A DNA stretch of 64,000 nucleotides from Escherichia coli (GTDB lineage: Bacteria; Pseudomonadota; Gammaproteobacteria; Enterobacterales; Enterobacteriaceae): the NCBI RefSeq assembly GCF_013315695.1, contig NZ_CP054353.1; one strand, 5' to 3'. Below, in pieces: positions 37,185-44,988 of this stretch. The notes under the pieces were generated by a model, which saw nothing but the letters and a program-made list of their open reading frames with translations, ran no database searches and was not told the origin of the DNA. How positions within the stretch are numbered: position 1 is the first letter of the stretch; each line of letters starts with the position of its first letter. The translations under genes were made by a program, and so were the position numbers.

Positions 37185-37497
37185 GCTACGCCTCTGTTAA
37201 AAATGTTAATCAATGTTAAGTAAGGTAACAATAGCAAACTTGTACGAAATATGTGTACAAAATGATAAATTAATTTTTTGCATTTAGTGCTAATACATAC
37301 AAAACAACAGGTTATGATAAAAAATATTGCATCATTTAAATAACAACCTATACAAGAATTTTCGCCAACTCATCTTCAACTTTTTCCATTTTTTATCAAT
37401 GTAAAGAAACAGTTATGTTTTGGTATTAAAAGAAAGACACCGGAAGATATGTCTGTTACCGTCTTACTCTCGCCTCTCCCATTACCCTGGACAGTTA

Positions 37498-38709
37498 ATG
37501 CTTACCACCCTTATTTATCGTAGCCATATACGTGACGACGAACCTGTCAAAAAAATCGAAGAAATGGTTTCGATAGCAAATCGCAGGAACATGCAGTCTG
37601 ACGTAACAGGGATCTTACTGTTTAATGGTTCTCATTTTTTCCAGCTTCTGGAAGGTCCGGAAGAACAGGTTAAAATGATATATCGGGCTATATGCCAGGA
37701 TCCACGGCACTATAATATTGTTGAGCTGATGTGCGATTACGCGCCTGCTCGCCGTTTTGGCAAAGCGGGAATGGAATTATTTGATTTGCGCCTGCACGAG
37801 CGAGATGACGTTTTACAGGCCGTATTCGACAAAGGCACATCAAAATTTCAGCTAACTTATGATGACAGAGCGCTACAATTTTTTCGTACTTTTGTCCTTG
37901 CAACCGAACAAGCAACCTATTTCGAGATCCCTGCCGAAGACTCCTGGCTTTTTATCGCTGACGGATCTGATAAAGAACTTGATTCCTGTACCCTTTCACC
38001 AACTATAAACGACCACTTTGCCTTTCATCCTATTGTCGATCCCTTATCGCGGCGGATAATCGCTTTTGAAGCCATTGTGCAAAAAAATGAAGATAGCCCA
38101 TCAGCTATAGCGGTTGGGCAGCGTAAAGACGGGGAAATCTATACAGCGGATCTCAAAAGTAAGGCGCTTGCATTCGCGATGGCACACGCACTTGAGCTCG
38201 GTGATAAAATGATTTCAATCAATCTATTACCTATGACCCTGGTTAACGAACCTGACGCAGTCTCTTTTTTACTTGATGAAATAAAGGCCAATGCTCTGGT
38301 GCCTGAACAAATCATCGTTGAATTTACTGAAAGTGAAGTCATATCTCGGTTTGATGAGTTTGCAGAAGCGATTAAATCGCTTAAGGCTGCCGGTATCAGT
38401 GTAGCAATTGATCATTTTGGCGCAGGTTTTGCCGGTTTGTTACTCCTGTCACGCTTCCAGCCTGACAGAATTAAAATCAGTCAGGAATTGATTACCAATG
38501 TTCATAAAAGCGGGCCACGGCAGGCAATTATTCAAGCGATCATAAAATGCTGTACATCACTTGAAATTCAAGTCTCTGCTATGGGTGTGACAACACCAGA
38601 AGAGTGGATGTGGCTTGAATCTGCAGGAATTGAGATGTTTCAGGGAGATCTGTTTGCGAAAGCTAAATTGAATGGTATCCCTTCAGTTGCGTGGCCGGAG
38701 AAAAAATAA
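37498..38709 (+). CDS. bluF: blue-light sensor BluF (BLUF plus degenerate EAL domain)
   Basis: 403 aa from MLTTLIYRSHIRDDEPVKKIEEMV (BLUF domain). Confidence 0.85.
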   Translation: MLTTLIYRSHIRDDEPVKKIEEMVSIANRRNMQSDVTGILLFNGSHFFQLLEGPEEQVKMIYRAICQDPRHYNIVELMCDYAPARRFGKAGMELFDLRLHERDDVLQAVFDKGTSKFQLTYDDRALQFFRTFVLATEQATYFEIPAEDSWLFIADGSDKELDSCTLSPTINDHFAFHPIVDPLSRRIIAFEAIVQKNEDSPSAIAVGQRKDGEIYTADLKSKALAFAMAHALELGDKMISINLLPMTLVNEPDAVSFLLDEIKANALVPEQIIVEFTESEVISRFDEFAEAIKSLKAAGISVAIDHFGAGFAGLLLLSRFQPDRIKISQELITNVHKSGPRQAIIQAIIKCCTSLEIQVSAMGVTTPEEWMWLESAGIEMFQGDLFAKAKLNGIPSVAWPEKK

Positions 38710-38913: not shown

Positions 38914-39645
38914 GTGGCTTATTACAGCATTGGTGATGTTGCTGAACGTTGCGGGATTAATCCTGTCACTCTCCGGGCCTGGCAACGCCGCTACGGTTTG
39001 TTAAAACCACAGCGCAGTGAAGGCGGACACCGACTCTTTGATGAAGAAGACATACAACGCATCGAAGAGATCAAGCGTTGGATAAGTAATGGCGTCCCTG
39101 TAGGCAAAGTTAAAGCATTACTGGAAACCACCAGCCAGGATACGGAAGATGACTGGAGCCGCCTGCAAGAAGAGATGATGTCAATTCTTCGTATGGCTAA
39201 TCCTGCCAAACTACGCGCGAGAATTATTTCACTGGGTCGAGAGTACCCAGTAGATCAATTGATTAATCATGTTTACCTTCCTGTTCGCCAGCGTCTCGTG
39301 CTTGATCACAACACCTCCCGCATTATGAGCAGTATGTTTGACGGCGCATTAATTGAATACGCAGCAGCCTCGCTTTTCGAAATGCGCCGTAAGCCCGGTA
39401 AAGAAGCCATTCTGATGGCGTGGAATGTTGAAGAGAGAGCACGATTGTGGCTGGAAGCATGGCGTTTATCATTGTCAGGATGGCACATTTCTGTTCTTGC
39501 TGATCCCATTGAATCGCCGCGCCCGGAACTGTTCCCGACGCAAACATTGATTGTCTGGACAGGCATGGCACCAACGAGAAGGCAAAACGAACTTTTACAA
39601 CACTGGGGTGAGCAAGGTTATAAAGTCATCTTCCATGCCCCCTAA
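38914..39645 (+). CDS. bluR: MerR-family repressor BluR
   Basis: 243 aa; N-terminal Mer[34 protein letters not shown]. Confidence 0.85.
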
Positions 39646-39865
39646 TTTCACCTTTATCCCGCCCCTTAGACAGAATGTTATAATCTGAACCCACAACAGC
39701 GTTTGTACCGGAGCTGGTCCATTACAAAATGCTCACCGGGAGAATTCAGGTAATCCCCCTTTCACACTTTGTACATATCACAGCCAAAGGACAGACCAGA
39801 TTGAAGTGGTAAAACCGATCGTGCACACTACGCAGTCTCACAACTAACAAGAGGTTATTATCCTG

Positions 39866-40270
39866 ATGGATCAGGTCGTTGTTTTTCAAAAGATGTTTGA
39901 GCAAGTGAGAAAAGAGCAAAACTTCTCCTGGTTTTATTCAGAATTAAAACATCACCGTATTGCACATTACATTTATTATCTAGCTACGGATAACATCAGA
40001 ATTATTACTCACGATGACACGGTTTTGTTATTAAGAGGAACCAGGAACCTGTTAAAAGTTAGTACGACCAAGAACCCTGCTAAAATAAAAGAGGCCGCAT
40101 TGCTTCATATTTGCGGAAAATCTACATTTCGGGAATACTGTTCAACACTGGCAGACGCGGGCGTTTTCCGGTGGGTTACTGATGTTAATCATAACAAACG
40201 CAGTTACTACGCCATTGATAATACGCTTTTATATATTGAAGATGTAGAAAACAATAAACCATTAATCTAG
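39866..40270 (+). CDS. ycgX: DUF1398-family protein YcgX
   Basis: 134 aa matching YcgX. Confidence 0.8.
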   Translation: MDQVVVFQKMFEQVRKEQNFSWFYSELKHHRIAHYIYYLATDNIRIITHDDTVLLLRGTRNLLKVSTTKNPAKIKEAALLHICGKSTFREYCSTLADAGVFRWVTDVNHNKRSYYAIDNTLLYIEDVENNKPLI

Positions 40271-40481
40271 CTAAAGTTGGATGCTTAAAAAATGCTTCAT
40301 AATTCAGTAAGGCATTAGCATAATGGAAATAAAAGTGCAGAGACTATTCATATGGATGAGTAATACTATCTTTTTATTGCCACCCATAAATAATCACCAG
40401 ATCAATACTATCAACTTGATATTTGAAATGTGATCACTTGACTTTTGATACGTTATTTTATAGCGGTTAACATATTTATAA

Positions 40482-40529
40482 AAAACAATGGGCGTGCCAT
40501 ACGCCCGTTTCAATACTTAACGCACATGT
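40482..40529. repeat. icd-terminator-like direct repeat, copy A (left boundary of iraM cassette)
   Basis: aaaacaaTgggcgtgCCatacgcccgtttcaataCttaacGcacatgt, about 90% identical to the sequence at 41350..41395. Confidence 0.7.
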
Positions 40530-40974
40530 GTTTTGGTTTAGTCATCATCCGGTTATATGTATTTTAGCCAGGAATGGGTTAAACCATTCCTATATAACTA
40601 AAAAATTGAAACCTTATTCTCATGTCATGCTTATATTCGTCATTATCGTTATATAAAAAGGCCAACCATAATGTTTAGCAAATTGGCACAAAGTAGTATA
40701 AAGGCTATGTTTTAATTACAGGATGTTCAGTCATTTGAATGTATAACATTTTAGCTAAACAAATCTAAAACGAAGTGAATAATTTAATGTTTTCACTAAA
40801 TCTCATTTTGTTTAATATCTATTGAGATTTCTTGCTTTAAATTTTGTTTTATATAAACAATGGTTTTAATTTTTAATTAATTTGTTTTTTGAGGGGGTAA
40901 TATACTCATATGCAAAATCAAGAAATAAAAATCCTAATGAACCATATTAAATACCGTGGGATAAGACATAACAA

Positions 40975-41298
40975 ATGAAGTGGATAGTAATTGACACGGT
41001 AATTCAACCTACATGCGGTATATCTTTTTCAGCCATATGGGGTGATATGAAAATGATCATCTGGTATCAATCCACTATATTTCTTCCTCCTGGCAGGATA
41101 TTTACACCGGTTAAGTCTGGTATTATCCTTAAGGATAAAGAATATCCTATTACTATTTATAACATCGCACCATTCAACAAGGATTTATGGAGTTTACTCA
41201 AAAGCAGTCAAGAGTGTCCTCCAGGAGAAAGCAAAATAACAAATAAATGTTTGCATAATAGTTGCATTATAAAAATATGCCCATATGGGCTCAAGTAA
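40975..41298 (+). CDS. iraM: anti-adaptor protein IraM (inhibits RssB-mediated RpoS degradation)
   Basis: 107 aa [23 protein letters not shown]... matching IraM/YcgW; very AT-rich surroundings. Confidence 0.85.
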
Positions 41299-41349
41299 TG
41301 GGCTTCATATAAATATTCTCGACATGCTATTAATAATATCCACATAAAT

Positions 41350-41395
41350 AAAACAACGGGCGTGTTATACGCCCGTTTCAATATTTAACACATGT
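41350..41395 (-). terminator. icd rho-independent terminator (copy B of the repeat)
   Basis: aacgggcgt-ataac-acgcccgtt hairpin plus T-tract on the minus strand, immediately 3' of icd. Confidence 0.6.
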
Positions 41396-41400
41396 AGAGA

Positions 41401-42651
41401 TTACATGTTCTTGATGATTGCATCACCAAACTCTGAACATTTCAGCAGTTTAGCGCCTTCCATCAGACGTTCGAAGTCATAGGTTACGGTCTTGGCATTG
41501 ATTGCGCCTTCCATACCTTTAACAATCAAGTCTGCGGCTTCAGTCCAGCCCATATGGCGTAACATCATCTCAGCGGAGAGAATAATAGAGCCTGGGTTTA
41601 CTTTGTCCTGACCGGCATATTTCGGCGCAGTACCGTGGGTGGCTTCAAACAGGGCGCATTCGTCACCGATGTTTGCGCCAGGGGCGATACCGATACCGCC
41701 AACCTGCGCTGCCAGGGCGTCAGAAATGTAGTCACCGTTCAGGTTCATACAGGCGATAACATCATATTCAGCCGGACGCAGCAGGATCTGTTGCAGGAAT
41801 GCATCAGCAATCACGTCTTTAATGACGATCTCTTTGCCGGTGTTCGGGTTTTTAACTTTCAGCCACGGGCCGCCGTCGATCAGTTCACCGCCAAACTCTT
41901 CACGCGCCAGCTGGTAGCCCCAGTCTTTAAACGCGCCTTCGGTGAACTTCATGATGTTGCCTTTGTGCACCAGGGTCACAGAGTCACGATCGTTAGCAAT
42001 TGCGTATTCGATCGCTGCACGAACCAGACGTTTGGTGCCTTCTTCAGAACACGGCTTAATACCGATACCGCAATGTTCCGGGAAGCGAATTTTCTTCACG
42101 CCCATCTCTTCACGCAGGAATTTAATCACTTTCTCAGCGTCGGCAGAGTCTGCTTTCCATTCGATACCCGCATAAATGTCTTCCGAGTTTTCACGGAAGA
42201 TAACCATATCGGTCAGTTCAGGGTGTTTAACCGGGCTTGGAGTGCCCTGATAGTAACGTACCGGACGCAGGCAGATGTAGAGATCCAGTTCCTGGCGCAG
42301 AGCAACGTTGAGAGAGCGAATACCGCCACCAACCGGAGTGGTCAGCGGGCCTTTGATGGCAACGCGATATTCACGAATCAGATCAAGGGTTTCAGCAGGT
42401 AGCCAGACATCCTGACCATAAACCTGTGTGGATTTTTCACCGGTGTAAATTTCCATCCAGGAGATTTTACGCTCGCCTTTATAGGCTTTCTCGACTGCAG
42501 CGTCGACCACTTTCAGCATGGCTGGGGTTACATCTACACCGATTCCATCACCTTCAATGTAAGGGATAATCGGATTTTCAGGAACGTTGAGTTTGCCGTT
42601 TTGCAGGGTGATCTTCTTGCCTTGTGCCGGAACAACTACTTTACTTTCCAT
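41401..42651 (-). CDS. icd: NADP-dependent isocitrate dehydrogenase
   Basis: 416 aa from [40 protein letters not shown]. Confidence 0.95.
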
Positions 42652-42824: not shown

Positions 42825-42896
42825 GCGGCAATTCATAATCTCTGAAAATACCATGCAAAAAACTTCTTTTAGACCAAAGACAGTATTTTTCTGACC
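42825..42896 (+). pseudogene. orphaned ancestral 5' end of rluE (23 codons), separated from the rest of the gene by an islet
   Basis: Encodes MRQFIISENTMQKTSFR then diverges to PKTVFF*; MRQFIISENTMQKTSFRN is the K-12 RluE N-terminus by recall. Confidence 0.55.
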
Positions 42897-43232
42897 TTCA
42901 AATAAGGTATTAAATATCAATAATTTATATCAGATTTTAAGCAATAAAAAAAACCACCAGAGATAACTAACAAGGTGCTATTTGGTCAAAATTTGACATT
43001 ACTCGATTCAGCGACTATCTCACTTTGAGCACTATTGGGAAAATTATCAAAAGTCATAGTTGAAGCGACAAGCAACGAGTAAATTATGGCATCCCCCCTT
43101 TTTGAGGTTCACATGAAACGCTTTGCACTGATAGCTGTGAAACTCGTTGCCTTTACTGGTTCTGCATCTGCTGCAACCGAAGAAATCAACTTCAAGTAAC
43201 AGAAACACTATATAACAATGGAGTGTTGACAA

Positions 43233-43682
43233 ATGGATACTACCGAAGAACGCAATGGAACATATTTCTACAGAGGACACCCGAACCTGTCCAAAATAGA
43301 ACTACTCAACGTCATATTCCTTGAAGAATTCTGTAAGGAATTGGGGATTGATTCGGTATCAGGTGCAGCAATCTTATCTGGTCAACCGTGGCTGGGTACA
43401 AGAGCGAAGCCGCAAGGGGCAACCCTGGGAACAAGTGTTGTCTCAAAGTATGCGCGTATACTGATGAGAGATGCACGCATGCCTTTTGGTATTTCTGTTC
43501 ATACACCAGTGGGTGTAAGGATGCAGAAATCTAATAAGCTTGCTGCAATTATCGCTCGTTGGGTCCCGTGGATTGGTTGGGCTTCACTGTCGATGAGTCT
43601 TTACAGGGTTTCGACTCGTACCCAGGAAAAATACAATCTGATTGCCAAACCTCAAGACCGTATTAAGTGGACTTCCTTCTAA
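43233..43682 (+). CDS. hypothetical protein, first gene of an overlapping two-gene cassette
   Basis: 149 aa ORF; below-genome-average GC by eye; hydrophobic stretch AAIIARWVPWIGWASLSMSL near the C-terminus; 16-nt overlap with the next gene. Confidence 0.5.
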   Translation: MDTTEERNGTYFYRGHPNLSKIELLNVIFLEEFCKELGIDSVSGAAILSGQPWLGTRAKPQGATLGTSVVSKYARILMRDARMPFGISVHTPVGVRMQKSNKLAAIIARWVPWIGWASLSMSLYRVSTRTQEKYNLIAKPQDRIKWTSF

Positions 43683-44017
43683 TGGCGACAACAATCACAG
43701 ACGAAGTTTTAGCACTGTTCCGTGATGAGATTCCAGGTTATCAGGATGACCACGGGAAGGAAATTCCGTTAGAACTGGACTCTGATTTGTTCGACTATCC
43801 ACGAGATGATTTAGAGGACGCTATACGGAAATACAAAGAGAGGTTTGGGATTAACCTGGATAATCTGGACTGGTCTTTGTACCTTCCATGGGAGTCTGCA
43901 CCATTGCTTCAACGATGGTTCAAGCTCAAGCGGGAAGAGGTAGAAACAACACGTTTACCGTTAACTGTACGGATGTTTGCAGAATCAGCAGAAGCGGGAA
44001 AATGGCTGTATCAGTAG
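43667..44017 (+). CDS. hypothetical acidic protein (possibly DUF1493-like), second gene of the cassette
   Basis: 116 aa ORF; acidic LELDSDLFDYPRDDLEDAI segment and C-terminal ...GKWLYQ; family assignment from memory only. Confidence 0.5.
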   Translation: MDFLLMATTITDEVLALFRDEIPGYQDDHGKEIPLELDSDLFDYPRDDLEDAIRKYKERFGINLDNLDWSLYLPWESAPLLQRWFKLKREEVETTRLPLTVRMFAESAEAGKWLYQ

Positions 44018-44337
44018 AATAAAAAAGAAGGCTGCGATGCCCCTCTTATTACTGCTGATGATGGTAGTGGTAAAGCATCATCCTAAACTTGAACAGTGAA
44101 GTGCTGTCACCCATCAGTAATACAGAAACACTATTTTTCATACCAGTATTTATTCAATTCATCAATGTAAAATGTGTTCATTGGGCCATATTTATCACCA
44201 TGCAGCCACACAACCGCTGCTCACTAACCCAGGTATTGATGAAACCGCGCTGAAGAGCCTGAACCCTGAACCTCTAACGAGTACCTTAAAAGTCCAATGC
44301 AATCCGACACTGTGCTACCCTCTGCGTAAAGCTCTAT

Positions 44338-44988
44338 TTGGAATTTACCATGAAATACTTTAGCGATTCTAAATCTTCTTTTAGAAAAAAACAGGTTAGT
44401 CGACTAAACTCGCAACACTCCACTAAGCGTAAACCTGAAAACCAGCCCACGCGTGTGATCCTGTTCAATAAACCCTACGATGTTCTTCCGCAGTTCACCG
44501 ATGAAGCCGGACGCAAAACATTAAAAGAATTCATCCCGGTTCAGGGCGTTTATGCAGCAGGTCGTCTTGACCGCGATAGCGAAGGGTTACTGGTGCTGAC
44601 CAATAACGGCGCGTTGCAGGCGCGTTTAACCCAGCCGGGTAAACGCACCGGAAAAATCTATTATGTGCAGGTGGAAGGTATTCCCACACAAGACGCACTT
44701 GAAGCCTTGCGCAATGGCGTAACCTTAAATGATGGCCCTACCCTGCCCGCAGGCGTAGAGCTGGTTGACGAACCCGCGTGGTTATGGCCGCGGAATCCAC
44801 CAATTCGTGAACGCAAAAGTATTCCCACCAGCTGGCTTAAGATCACCTTATATGAAGGACGTAATCGCCAGGTGCGCCGCATGACCGCCCATGTTGGTTT
44901 CCCCACGCTGCGACTGATTCGCTATGCGATGGGTGATTACTCTTTGGATAATCTTGCCAACGGCGAATGGCGAGAAGCGACAGATTAA
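44338..44988 (+). CDS. rluE: 23S rRNA pseudouridine synthase RluE with a replaced, divergent N-terminus
   Basis: 216 aa; from [19 protein letters not shown] onward matches RluE; first ~35 residues differ from the K-12 N-terminus; alternative start ATG 44350. Confidence 0.8.

Follow-up and report, generated by a model that had tools for sequence, protein, structure and literature searches.

The window, that is, the whole 64-kb stretch of Escherichia coli DNA that was analysed, carried the gene order bluF, bluR, ycgX, ymgL, terminator copy A, ymgK, iraM, terminator copy B and icd, and the coordinates of these features are given in Table 1. The DNA between the two terminator copies is referred to below as the cassette, and its ORFs were ymgK and iraM only; an integrase or excisionase gene was absent from it. 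The GC content was 24-36% between copies A and B and about 50% in icd. The ycgX family is also known as a prophage gene, with a match to phrog_413, and ymgL was found with or without the cassette, being annotated in genomes with an empty site too. In this genome the cassette was located outside any recognisable prophage, between chromosomal ycgX/ymgL and icd, and since icd was full length and lay 5 nt from copy B, there is no e14 or other prophage between icd and iraM. The K-12 MG1655 genome showed the same order, but e14 (1196209-1211412) and the icdC pseudogene separated the working icd from copy B, a layout that places iraM and both terminator copies outside e14. A scan of 39600-41600 against Rfam produced no match above the gathering thresholds.

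Table 1. Coordinates of the features at the iraM locus in the window
Feature	Position	Strand	Basis or remark
bluF	37420-38709	+	
bluR	38914-39645	+	
ycgX (DUF1398), left chromosomal flank gene	39866-40270	+	ORF; annotated as ycgX in identical and related genomes
ymgL, small ORF of the left flank	40323-40433	+	Coordinates transferred from NZ_CP146670 and the K-12 annotation
Terminator copy A (T_A), left boundary of the cassette	40478-40529	-	Hairpin 40490-40506 (GGGCGTGCCATACGCCC), then ATTGTTTTTT on the minus strand
Cassette body: AT-rich iraM upstream region, ymgK and iraM	40530-41343	+	Missing en bloc from 1,037 genomes
ymgK, 14-aa small ORF in the cassette, upstream of iraM	40671-40715	+	Transferred annotation; ATG and TAA read in the sequence
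iraM, 107-aa ORF, anti-adaptor of RssB (PmrD-fold family PF11183)	40975-41298	+	Family match
Terminator copy B (T_B), working icd terminator, between convergent icd and iraM	41344-41395	-	Hairpin 41355-41377, then GTTTTATTTA
Final 165 bp of icd, segment carried and exchanged by icd-integrating phages	41401-41565	-	
icd, intact, 416 aa	41401-42651	-	

Two copies of ATTTTGTTT(A/T)ATAT were present upstream of iraM at 40805-40818 and 40841-40854, 36 nt apart. They look like PhoP-box half-sites (TGTTTA) and would accord with the control by PhoP that has been reported for iraM. A 1.5-kb insert was also found between icd and rluE (42873-44371), which was absent from K-12-like strains and from a Citrobacter genome. 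Its first ORF (43233-43682, 149 aa) matched the NCBIfam STM2901 family and phrog_21993, and the second (43667-44017, 116 aa), which overlaps the first, matched phrog_20802; the adjacent gene in strain IAI39 is annotated as DUF1493. The same pair of genes was carried by IAI39, with the first gene split by an IS3 element.

The duplicated icd terminator

The repeat search returned one 48-nt direct repeat at 40477-40524 and 41345-41392, which was ungapped, 85% identical and spaced by 868, while a gapped local alignment of 40478-40529 with 41344-41395 showed 46 of 54 columns identical, with two 2-nt gaps. The two copies aligned with a score of 66, against 20.9±2.6 (maximum 38) for 1,000 dinucleotide shuffles (z = 17). 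A 35-nt probe from copy B, with up to 3 mismatches allowed, found no further match in the 64-kb window (0 expected), so that the repeat is not a dispersed family. The sequence-only reading of this DNA had described two terminator copies in direct orientation, about 90% identical and enclosing AT-rich DNA, in a genome without e14. Its coordinates and identity hold for the ungapped core, each copy in direct orientation having its hairpin and U-tract, and the similarity withstood the formal alignment. The AT-rich insert agreed with the GC content given above, and the absence of e14 with an intact icd that adjoins copy B.

Both copies were called as putative intrinsic terminators on the minus (icd) strand, each with a GC-rich hairpin and a U-tract. 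The stem of copy B (41377-41355) had 9 pairs and was followed by GTTTTATTTA, and that of copy A (40506-40490) had 6 pairs and was followed by ATTGTTTTTT. Predicted folding energies of copy B were -23.3 kcal/mol (z = -4.9) on the minus strand and -17.8 (z = -4.35) on the plus strand; a strong predicted fold on both strands is what a bidirectional terminator serving the convergent icd and iraM would show, and copy B is placed so as to terminate both. Copy A contained a 6-bp GC stem and U6 only, and its 66-nt context folded no better than shuffles (z = -0.2). The K-12-type copy A had a stem mismatch, which indicates that copy A is not uniformly maintained. Copy A may insulate the cassette from ycgX and ymgL, although it is decaying in some lineages.

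The two copies differed in diagnostic bases. Across 14 strains, the B-type bases (loop TTA, AATATTTAACACATG) occurred without exception in copy B, in single copies and in phage copies, and copy A always had its own bases (loop CCA, AATACTTAACGCACATGT). The A-type bases (loop CCA, AATACTT and AACGCACATGT) were common to the 7 tabulated iraM-positive strains. As expected from the sequence-only reading, copy A was present in all 8 common-type iraM-positive strains examined, namely the 7 tabulated and IAI39, in which it was inferred from coordinates.

Further variation was recorded in single strains. In Z142-4 (L036, 1480-2195 and 3060-3773), IS200C was inserted in the A-tract of both copies at an identical position and orientation, between ...TTCTGTGCAC and AAAAACAACGGGCG, and in a Citrobacter genome (L028, about 6650-7155) the remnant of an IS200 lay at the corresponding place in that genome's icd terminator. 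IS200 appears to favour the icd terminator as a target. Copy B of Z142-4 (L036, 3774-3796) read AACGGGCGTATAACACGCCCGTT, the exact reverse complement of the usual AACGGGCGTGTTATACGCCCGTT, with the hairpin flipped and the flanks unchanged. The single terminator of ST131 (L002, 2184-2215) had paired changes on both sides of the hairpin (AACAACAAC ... GTTACCGTT), which extended the predicted stem to about 15 bp (-23.4 kcal/mol).

Presence, absence and age of the cassette

A 1.7-kb query spanning both copies was searched in 5,426 complete E. coli genomes, and a genome matching at least 80% of the query was counted as a cassette carrier. The cassette was carried by 3,848 genomes (about 71%), and an uninterrupted empty site was found in 1,037, including ST131, ST95-type and an O2:K1:H7 APEC strain. 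The empty site passed from the left flank of copy A through one terminator to the right flank of copy B, and was 869 bp shorter with no extra bases. The left flanks of the four empty-site alleles that were read (ST131, SC434, Rb-3 and SCU-176) formed one tight haplotype cluster, 0.3-0.9% apart, and were about 3% from every iraM-positive haplotype. The clean junction supported the interpretation that the repeat behaves as the boundary of an accessory insert. Strain GPEC657 was also without iraM and had a different (non-B2) flank, with IS200C at the junction. The junction that the two terminator copies provide can easily be tested by PCR, both to type strains and to measure loss of the cassette.

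In the O157:H7 genomes (Xuzhou21), only copy B and icd matched the 1.7-kb query. None of ycgX, ymgL, copy A and iraM was found anywhere in the O157:H7 records, and this interval was apparently lost or exchanged next to the icd prophage.

The presence of iraM in some strains and its absence from others, including CFT073, was already reported by Hryckowian et al. 2014 (PMC4045071), so that the polymorphism itself is published, and the terminator bracket is apparently undescribed in the literature searched. The same paper places iraM on the e14 prophage; this placement is wrong, being contradicted by the window and by the MG1655 annotation. Because IraM controls RpoS stability, the presence or absence of iraM changes the general stress response between E. 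coli lineages, with B2/ExPEC-type strains lacking the gene. The exact boundaries of the iraM indel are defined here, and the origin of iraM is tied to the phage-integration hotspot at icd.

A different arrangement was found in 19 E. coli genomes of the EC42405 type, in which an 8-kb degraded island was located between ycgX and icd (L031, 12406-20490). On the icd side the island was bounded by a B-type terminator and an e14-like attL sequence. It contained trkG, in K-12 a gene of the Rac prophage, together with IS elements (IS100/IS5 fragments), a gene for a 455-aa hypothetical protein, an ariR/ymgB-like gene and a divergent iraM. This iraM was 80% identical in nucleotides, and its upstream region 74% identical, to those of the cassette. 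The EC42405 type was without ymgL and copy A, and its iraM adjoined ycgX without an intervening terminator. The flank up to ycgX was about 9% divergent, a degree of sequence divergence that suggests import from a distant Escherichia lineage.

Among iraM-positive haplotypes the cassette alleles were 4-6% apart, against 2-3.4% for the left flank, so the cassette predates the split of those lineages. The left flank of the window was identical to that of IAI39, and the two cassettes were 98.9% identical; the IraM protein of IAI39 was the same as that of MS 21-1, which was 100% identical to the window over the 1.7-kb query. IAI39 belongs to phylogroup F. Phylogroup F is usually placed as sister to B2, and with the cassette present in IAI39 this favours a single loss in the B2 lineage. 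The B2 flank was equidistant (about 3%) from the F, A and E haplotypes, and the B2-type empty site may be an unfilled target or the product of a later deletion.

Other Escherichia species, with one representative genome each, showed no icd-linked iraM, and the only copy found was in an E. albertii prophage. In one Citrobacter genome a ycgX homologue lay beside icd, with the remnant of an IS200 and one unrelated terminator, and iraM was absent there. The YcgX homologues of other Escherichia were located elsewhere (fliD region) or in prophages, the ycgX-icd synteny being seen in the one Citrobacter genome only. The lack of an icd-linked iraM in the representatives of other species and in Citrobacter indicates that the cassette was gained within the E. 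coli lineage.

Phage relatives of IraM and of the terminator

IraM matched the NCBIfam model PRK09919 (anti-adapter protein IraM) with 171.3 bits against a cut-off of 121, and phrog_4407 with E = 4.5e-51; PF11183 was precomputed on all IraM homologues. Homologues with 54-74% amino acid identity were found in lambdoid prophages, where they occupied the interval from the Q antiterminator to the lysis genes. These prophage relatives were stand-alone, oppositely oriented cargo, some of them directly beside stx2AB and one set in E. albertii prophages. Their sequence and placement showed the IraM family to be a common prophage moron, and the family provides a concrete example of a phage cargo gene becoming a host regulator. 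The phage iraM-like genes had no similar flanking terminators or upstream DNA, and the DNA homology of the cassette covered the coding sequence only.

In Stx2 prophages (L014-L016, about 3170-3540), an IraM-family gene with 71-74% identity was located on the opposite strand between stx2B and a nanS-p-like esterase gene, and it was unannotated in several phage records. A 558-bp low-coverage contig of Oceanospirillum linum (NZ_MTSD02000045.1) encoded the first 47 IraM residues at 96% identity and is almost certainly E. coli contamination of that assembly.

The terminator was also found in phage attachment DNA. According to the depositor annotation, the attP of phage 21 contained, in order, int, three arm-type sites (annotated consensus YYTTCCCCAAAA), the terminator, a 165-bp ICDH-like icd' pseudogene and the core/crossover end. 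The attL of the O157:H7 prophage had a phage 21-like layout, with the terminator directly after int/xis and a hairpin and 3' spacer identical to those of copy B, and the attL of e14 contained a diverged terminator homologue with a different stem that bore only a distant resemblance to copies A and B. The terminator stood between the arm sites/int and icd' in phage 21, the O157 prophage, the EC42405 attL and e14. Several free lambdoid phages matched copy B at 90-96%, and genomes with a current icd prophage contained 2-4 terminator copies. The crossover of e14 and phage 21 lies 165 bp inside icd, and integration duplicates the icd segment (icdC) together with the terminator; as the terminator is part of attP, each integration at icd makes two direct copies that enclose phage DNA.

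The last 165 bp of icd, the counterpart of which is annotated as icdC in K-12, were 3.6-10.3% divergent between strains; the remainder of icd differed by mostly 0-3% (up to 5.1%, in the EC42405 variant). The single chromosomal allele of SCU-176 was the same as the phage 21 allele over the aligned terminator and the start of the icd tail. Judging from these alleles, phages evidently keep overwriting the 165-bp tail of icd and the terminator segment, and such overwriting on the icd side would explain the shared B-type bases as against the own bases of copy A. A search of IMG/VR for the A-type terminator on a mobile element returned 4 matches, all of which were host flank of predicted prophages; with the A-type seen there only as host flank, the sequence alone assigns neither copy to a phage. 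No homology to the icd 3' end was detectable beside copy A, as 40525-40974 scored 18-20 against 18.4±2.2 for shuffles. The arm-type motif YYTTCCCCAAAA had 14 matches with up to 2 mismatches in the whole window (22.6 expected) and none in 40271-41400.

Origin of the cassette

The preferred though tentative reading, given slightly less than an even chance, makes the iraM cassette the last surviving moron left by an ancient phage 21/e14-type prophage once integrated at icd. An attP of the phage 21/e14 type would have carried the last 165 bp of icd and the icd terminator, and its integration would have set two terminators in direct orientation with phage DNA between. The phage-supplied terminator would have ended beside the working icd, at the present position of copy B, and the chromosome's own terminator would have come to lie beyond the displaced icd tail, at the present position of copy A. 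Later deletions would then have removed the integrase, the remaining prophage and the displaced icd tail, leaving iraM and its own promoter region bracketed by two terminators. Copy B, contiguous with the icd 3' end, would have been overwritten by phage-borne alleles, and copy A, being shielded, would have kept its own allele; the two copies would also be substrates for homologous recombination able to delete the cassette. We infer this history of integration and decay, and with it which copy came from the phage. Integration of icd phages was the only mechanism, of those considered, that is directly observed to duplicate the terminator in direct orientation. Also in favour of the prophage reading are the lambdoid homologues of IraM, the EC42405 island with its own iraM, the lack of an icd-linked iraM in the representatives of other Escherichia species, the B-type bases shared with phage copies, the divergent icd tail and the AT-rich composition of the cassette. 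Since no icd tail, arm motif or integrase lies beside copy A, the prophage model needs at least two later deletions, one of which would end about 10 nt from where the displaced icd stop codon would be. Further points against it are the DNA homology with phage iraM-like genes, which is limited to the coding sequence, and the A-type terminator, which in IMG/VR occurred as host flank only. In the EC42405 island, iraM may belong either to the prophage remnant or to the chromosome.

The main rival, judged possible though rather unlikely, was the direct recombination of a unit of a terminator homologue and iraM, as small circular or linear DNA, into a single icd terminator without a full prophage. 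RecA acting on about 45 nt of homology, or a site-specific recombinase in trans, would produce hybrid left and right copies, and the B2-type empty site would be the unoccupied target. Such a route agrees with empty-site alleles that consist exactly of left flank, one terminator and right flank with no extra bases, and the tight flank cluster of the four B2-type haplotypes is what one would expect of a lineage that the insert never reached. The repeat is moreover the terminator module only and ends short of icd, as if the terminator were the recombination site, and a palindrome (CACATGTG) lies at the right edge of copy A. However, no recombinase gene, terminal inverted repeats or known att motif accompanied the cassette, no mobile terminator-iraM unit was found in phages or in IMG/VR, and formation of a circle presupposes an earlier state with two terminators. 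The presence of the cassette in phylogroup F strain IAI39 also makes loss in B2 at least as parsimonious as an ancestral empty site. An improbable account, well behind direct insertion, treats iraM as old resident DNA of the ycg island, copy A as a local duplication or gene conversion product of the icd terminator, and the absence of iraM as loss by recombination between the copies. The divergence of the cassette alleles relative to the flank (4-6% against 2-3.4%), which makes the cassette as old as the major E. coli lineages, speaks for it, as do the EC42405-type iraM adjoining ycgX without a terminator between, the absence of the cassette from GPEC657 with its non-B2 flank, and the IS200C elements beside both terminators of Z142-4, direct repeats that could mediate loss. 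Against these points, we are aware of no process by which a 50-nt terminator would be copied to a position 870 bp distant, members of the IraM family outside the icd locus are overwhelmingly carried by prophages, and the composition of the cassette is atypical; no iraM was detected in the representatives of other Escherichia species or between ycgX and icd in the Citrobacter genome.

The sequence-only reading had taken the repeat for an attL/attR-type scar at the e14 site and iraM for the domesticated remnant of an integrative element. The mobile-element part of this was broadly right, in view of the empty site, the terminator in attP and the prophage morons, but the attribution to e14 was not. 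That the repeat is the scar left by e14, or by the precise excision of an e14-type element, is very unlikely: the location is indeed the e14 insertion locus and the e14 attL has a related terminator, but K-12 holds e14 and both copies together, the copies lying outside e14 and beyond icdC, and the e14 terminator is only distantly similar. The crossover core is 165 bp inside icd, and no icd', arm sites or integrase lie by copy A. That the two copies are unrelated terminators, alike by chance or convergence because both are short GC hairpins followed by T runs, is scarcely credible and was rejected, since the likeness runs about 25 nt past the hairpin (TTTCAATAYTTAAC...CATGT), with z = 17 and 0 expected matches.

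Two other kinds of element were tried and rejected. A transposon, IS or MITE would not account for cassette ends without terminal inverted repeats, no transposase was present, and target-site duplications, at 2-14 bp, are much shorter than the repeat of about 50 nt. An integron cassette was rejected because there was no integrase and the hairpin flanks (AAACAAC ... GTTTCAA) misfit the attC core RYYYAAC ... GTTRRRY.

A prophage relic with att-associated direct repeats is a well-known kind of object and involves no new mechanism. In the present case the repeat delimits an old accessory islet of phage origin, situated at an established hotspot of integration. The cassette shares with the att sites of phage 21, e14, the O157 prophage and the sit island the same locus, the same terminator in the duplicated segment, the direct orientation and AT-rich foreign DNA between. 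However, the icd phages duplicate about 220 bp (165 bp of icd' and the terminator) and have an integrase and arm sites, whereas the cassette has only the terminator of about 50 nt and a 0.87-kb insert. It resembles prophage morons (lambda bor/lom, stx) in being a single small AT-rich gene with its own promoter region and flanking terminators, with homologues in the moron slot between Q and lysis genes, but it lies outside a recognisable prophage and is fixed as a host regulator in about 71% of complete E. coli genomes. Islets at the 3' ends of tRNA, tmRNA and protein genes likewise have imperfect direct repeats of tens of bp and a clean presence/absence polymorphism; in contrast, the repeat of the cassette is a terminator that lies downstream of the gene and is not part of its 3' end, and no remnant of an integrase is left. 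The iraL gene of UPEC CFT073 encodes a homologous anti-adaptor, with 58.9% amino acid identity to IraM according to the paper, and is likewise horizontally acquired and variably present, but iraL is carried on a potB-associated prophage island and iraM is located at icd (PMC4045071).

A wider and rather doubtful extension of the prophage reading would make the icd 3' end a "terminator-stacking" graveyard, in which each integration would add a terminator beside icd and push the previous one outward. Decay would leave single cargo genes boxed between successive terminator copies. The oldest layer would be iraM with copy A, which would preserve the pre-phage chromosomal terminator allele. If this is true, new cargo would arrive pre-insulated transcriptionally, and each layer could be deleted by recombination between terminators. 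The K-12 arrangement (T_e14, e14, icdC-T_B, iraM, T_A) would be the next layer being laid.
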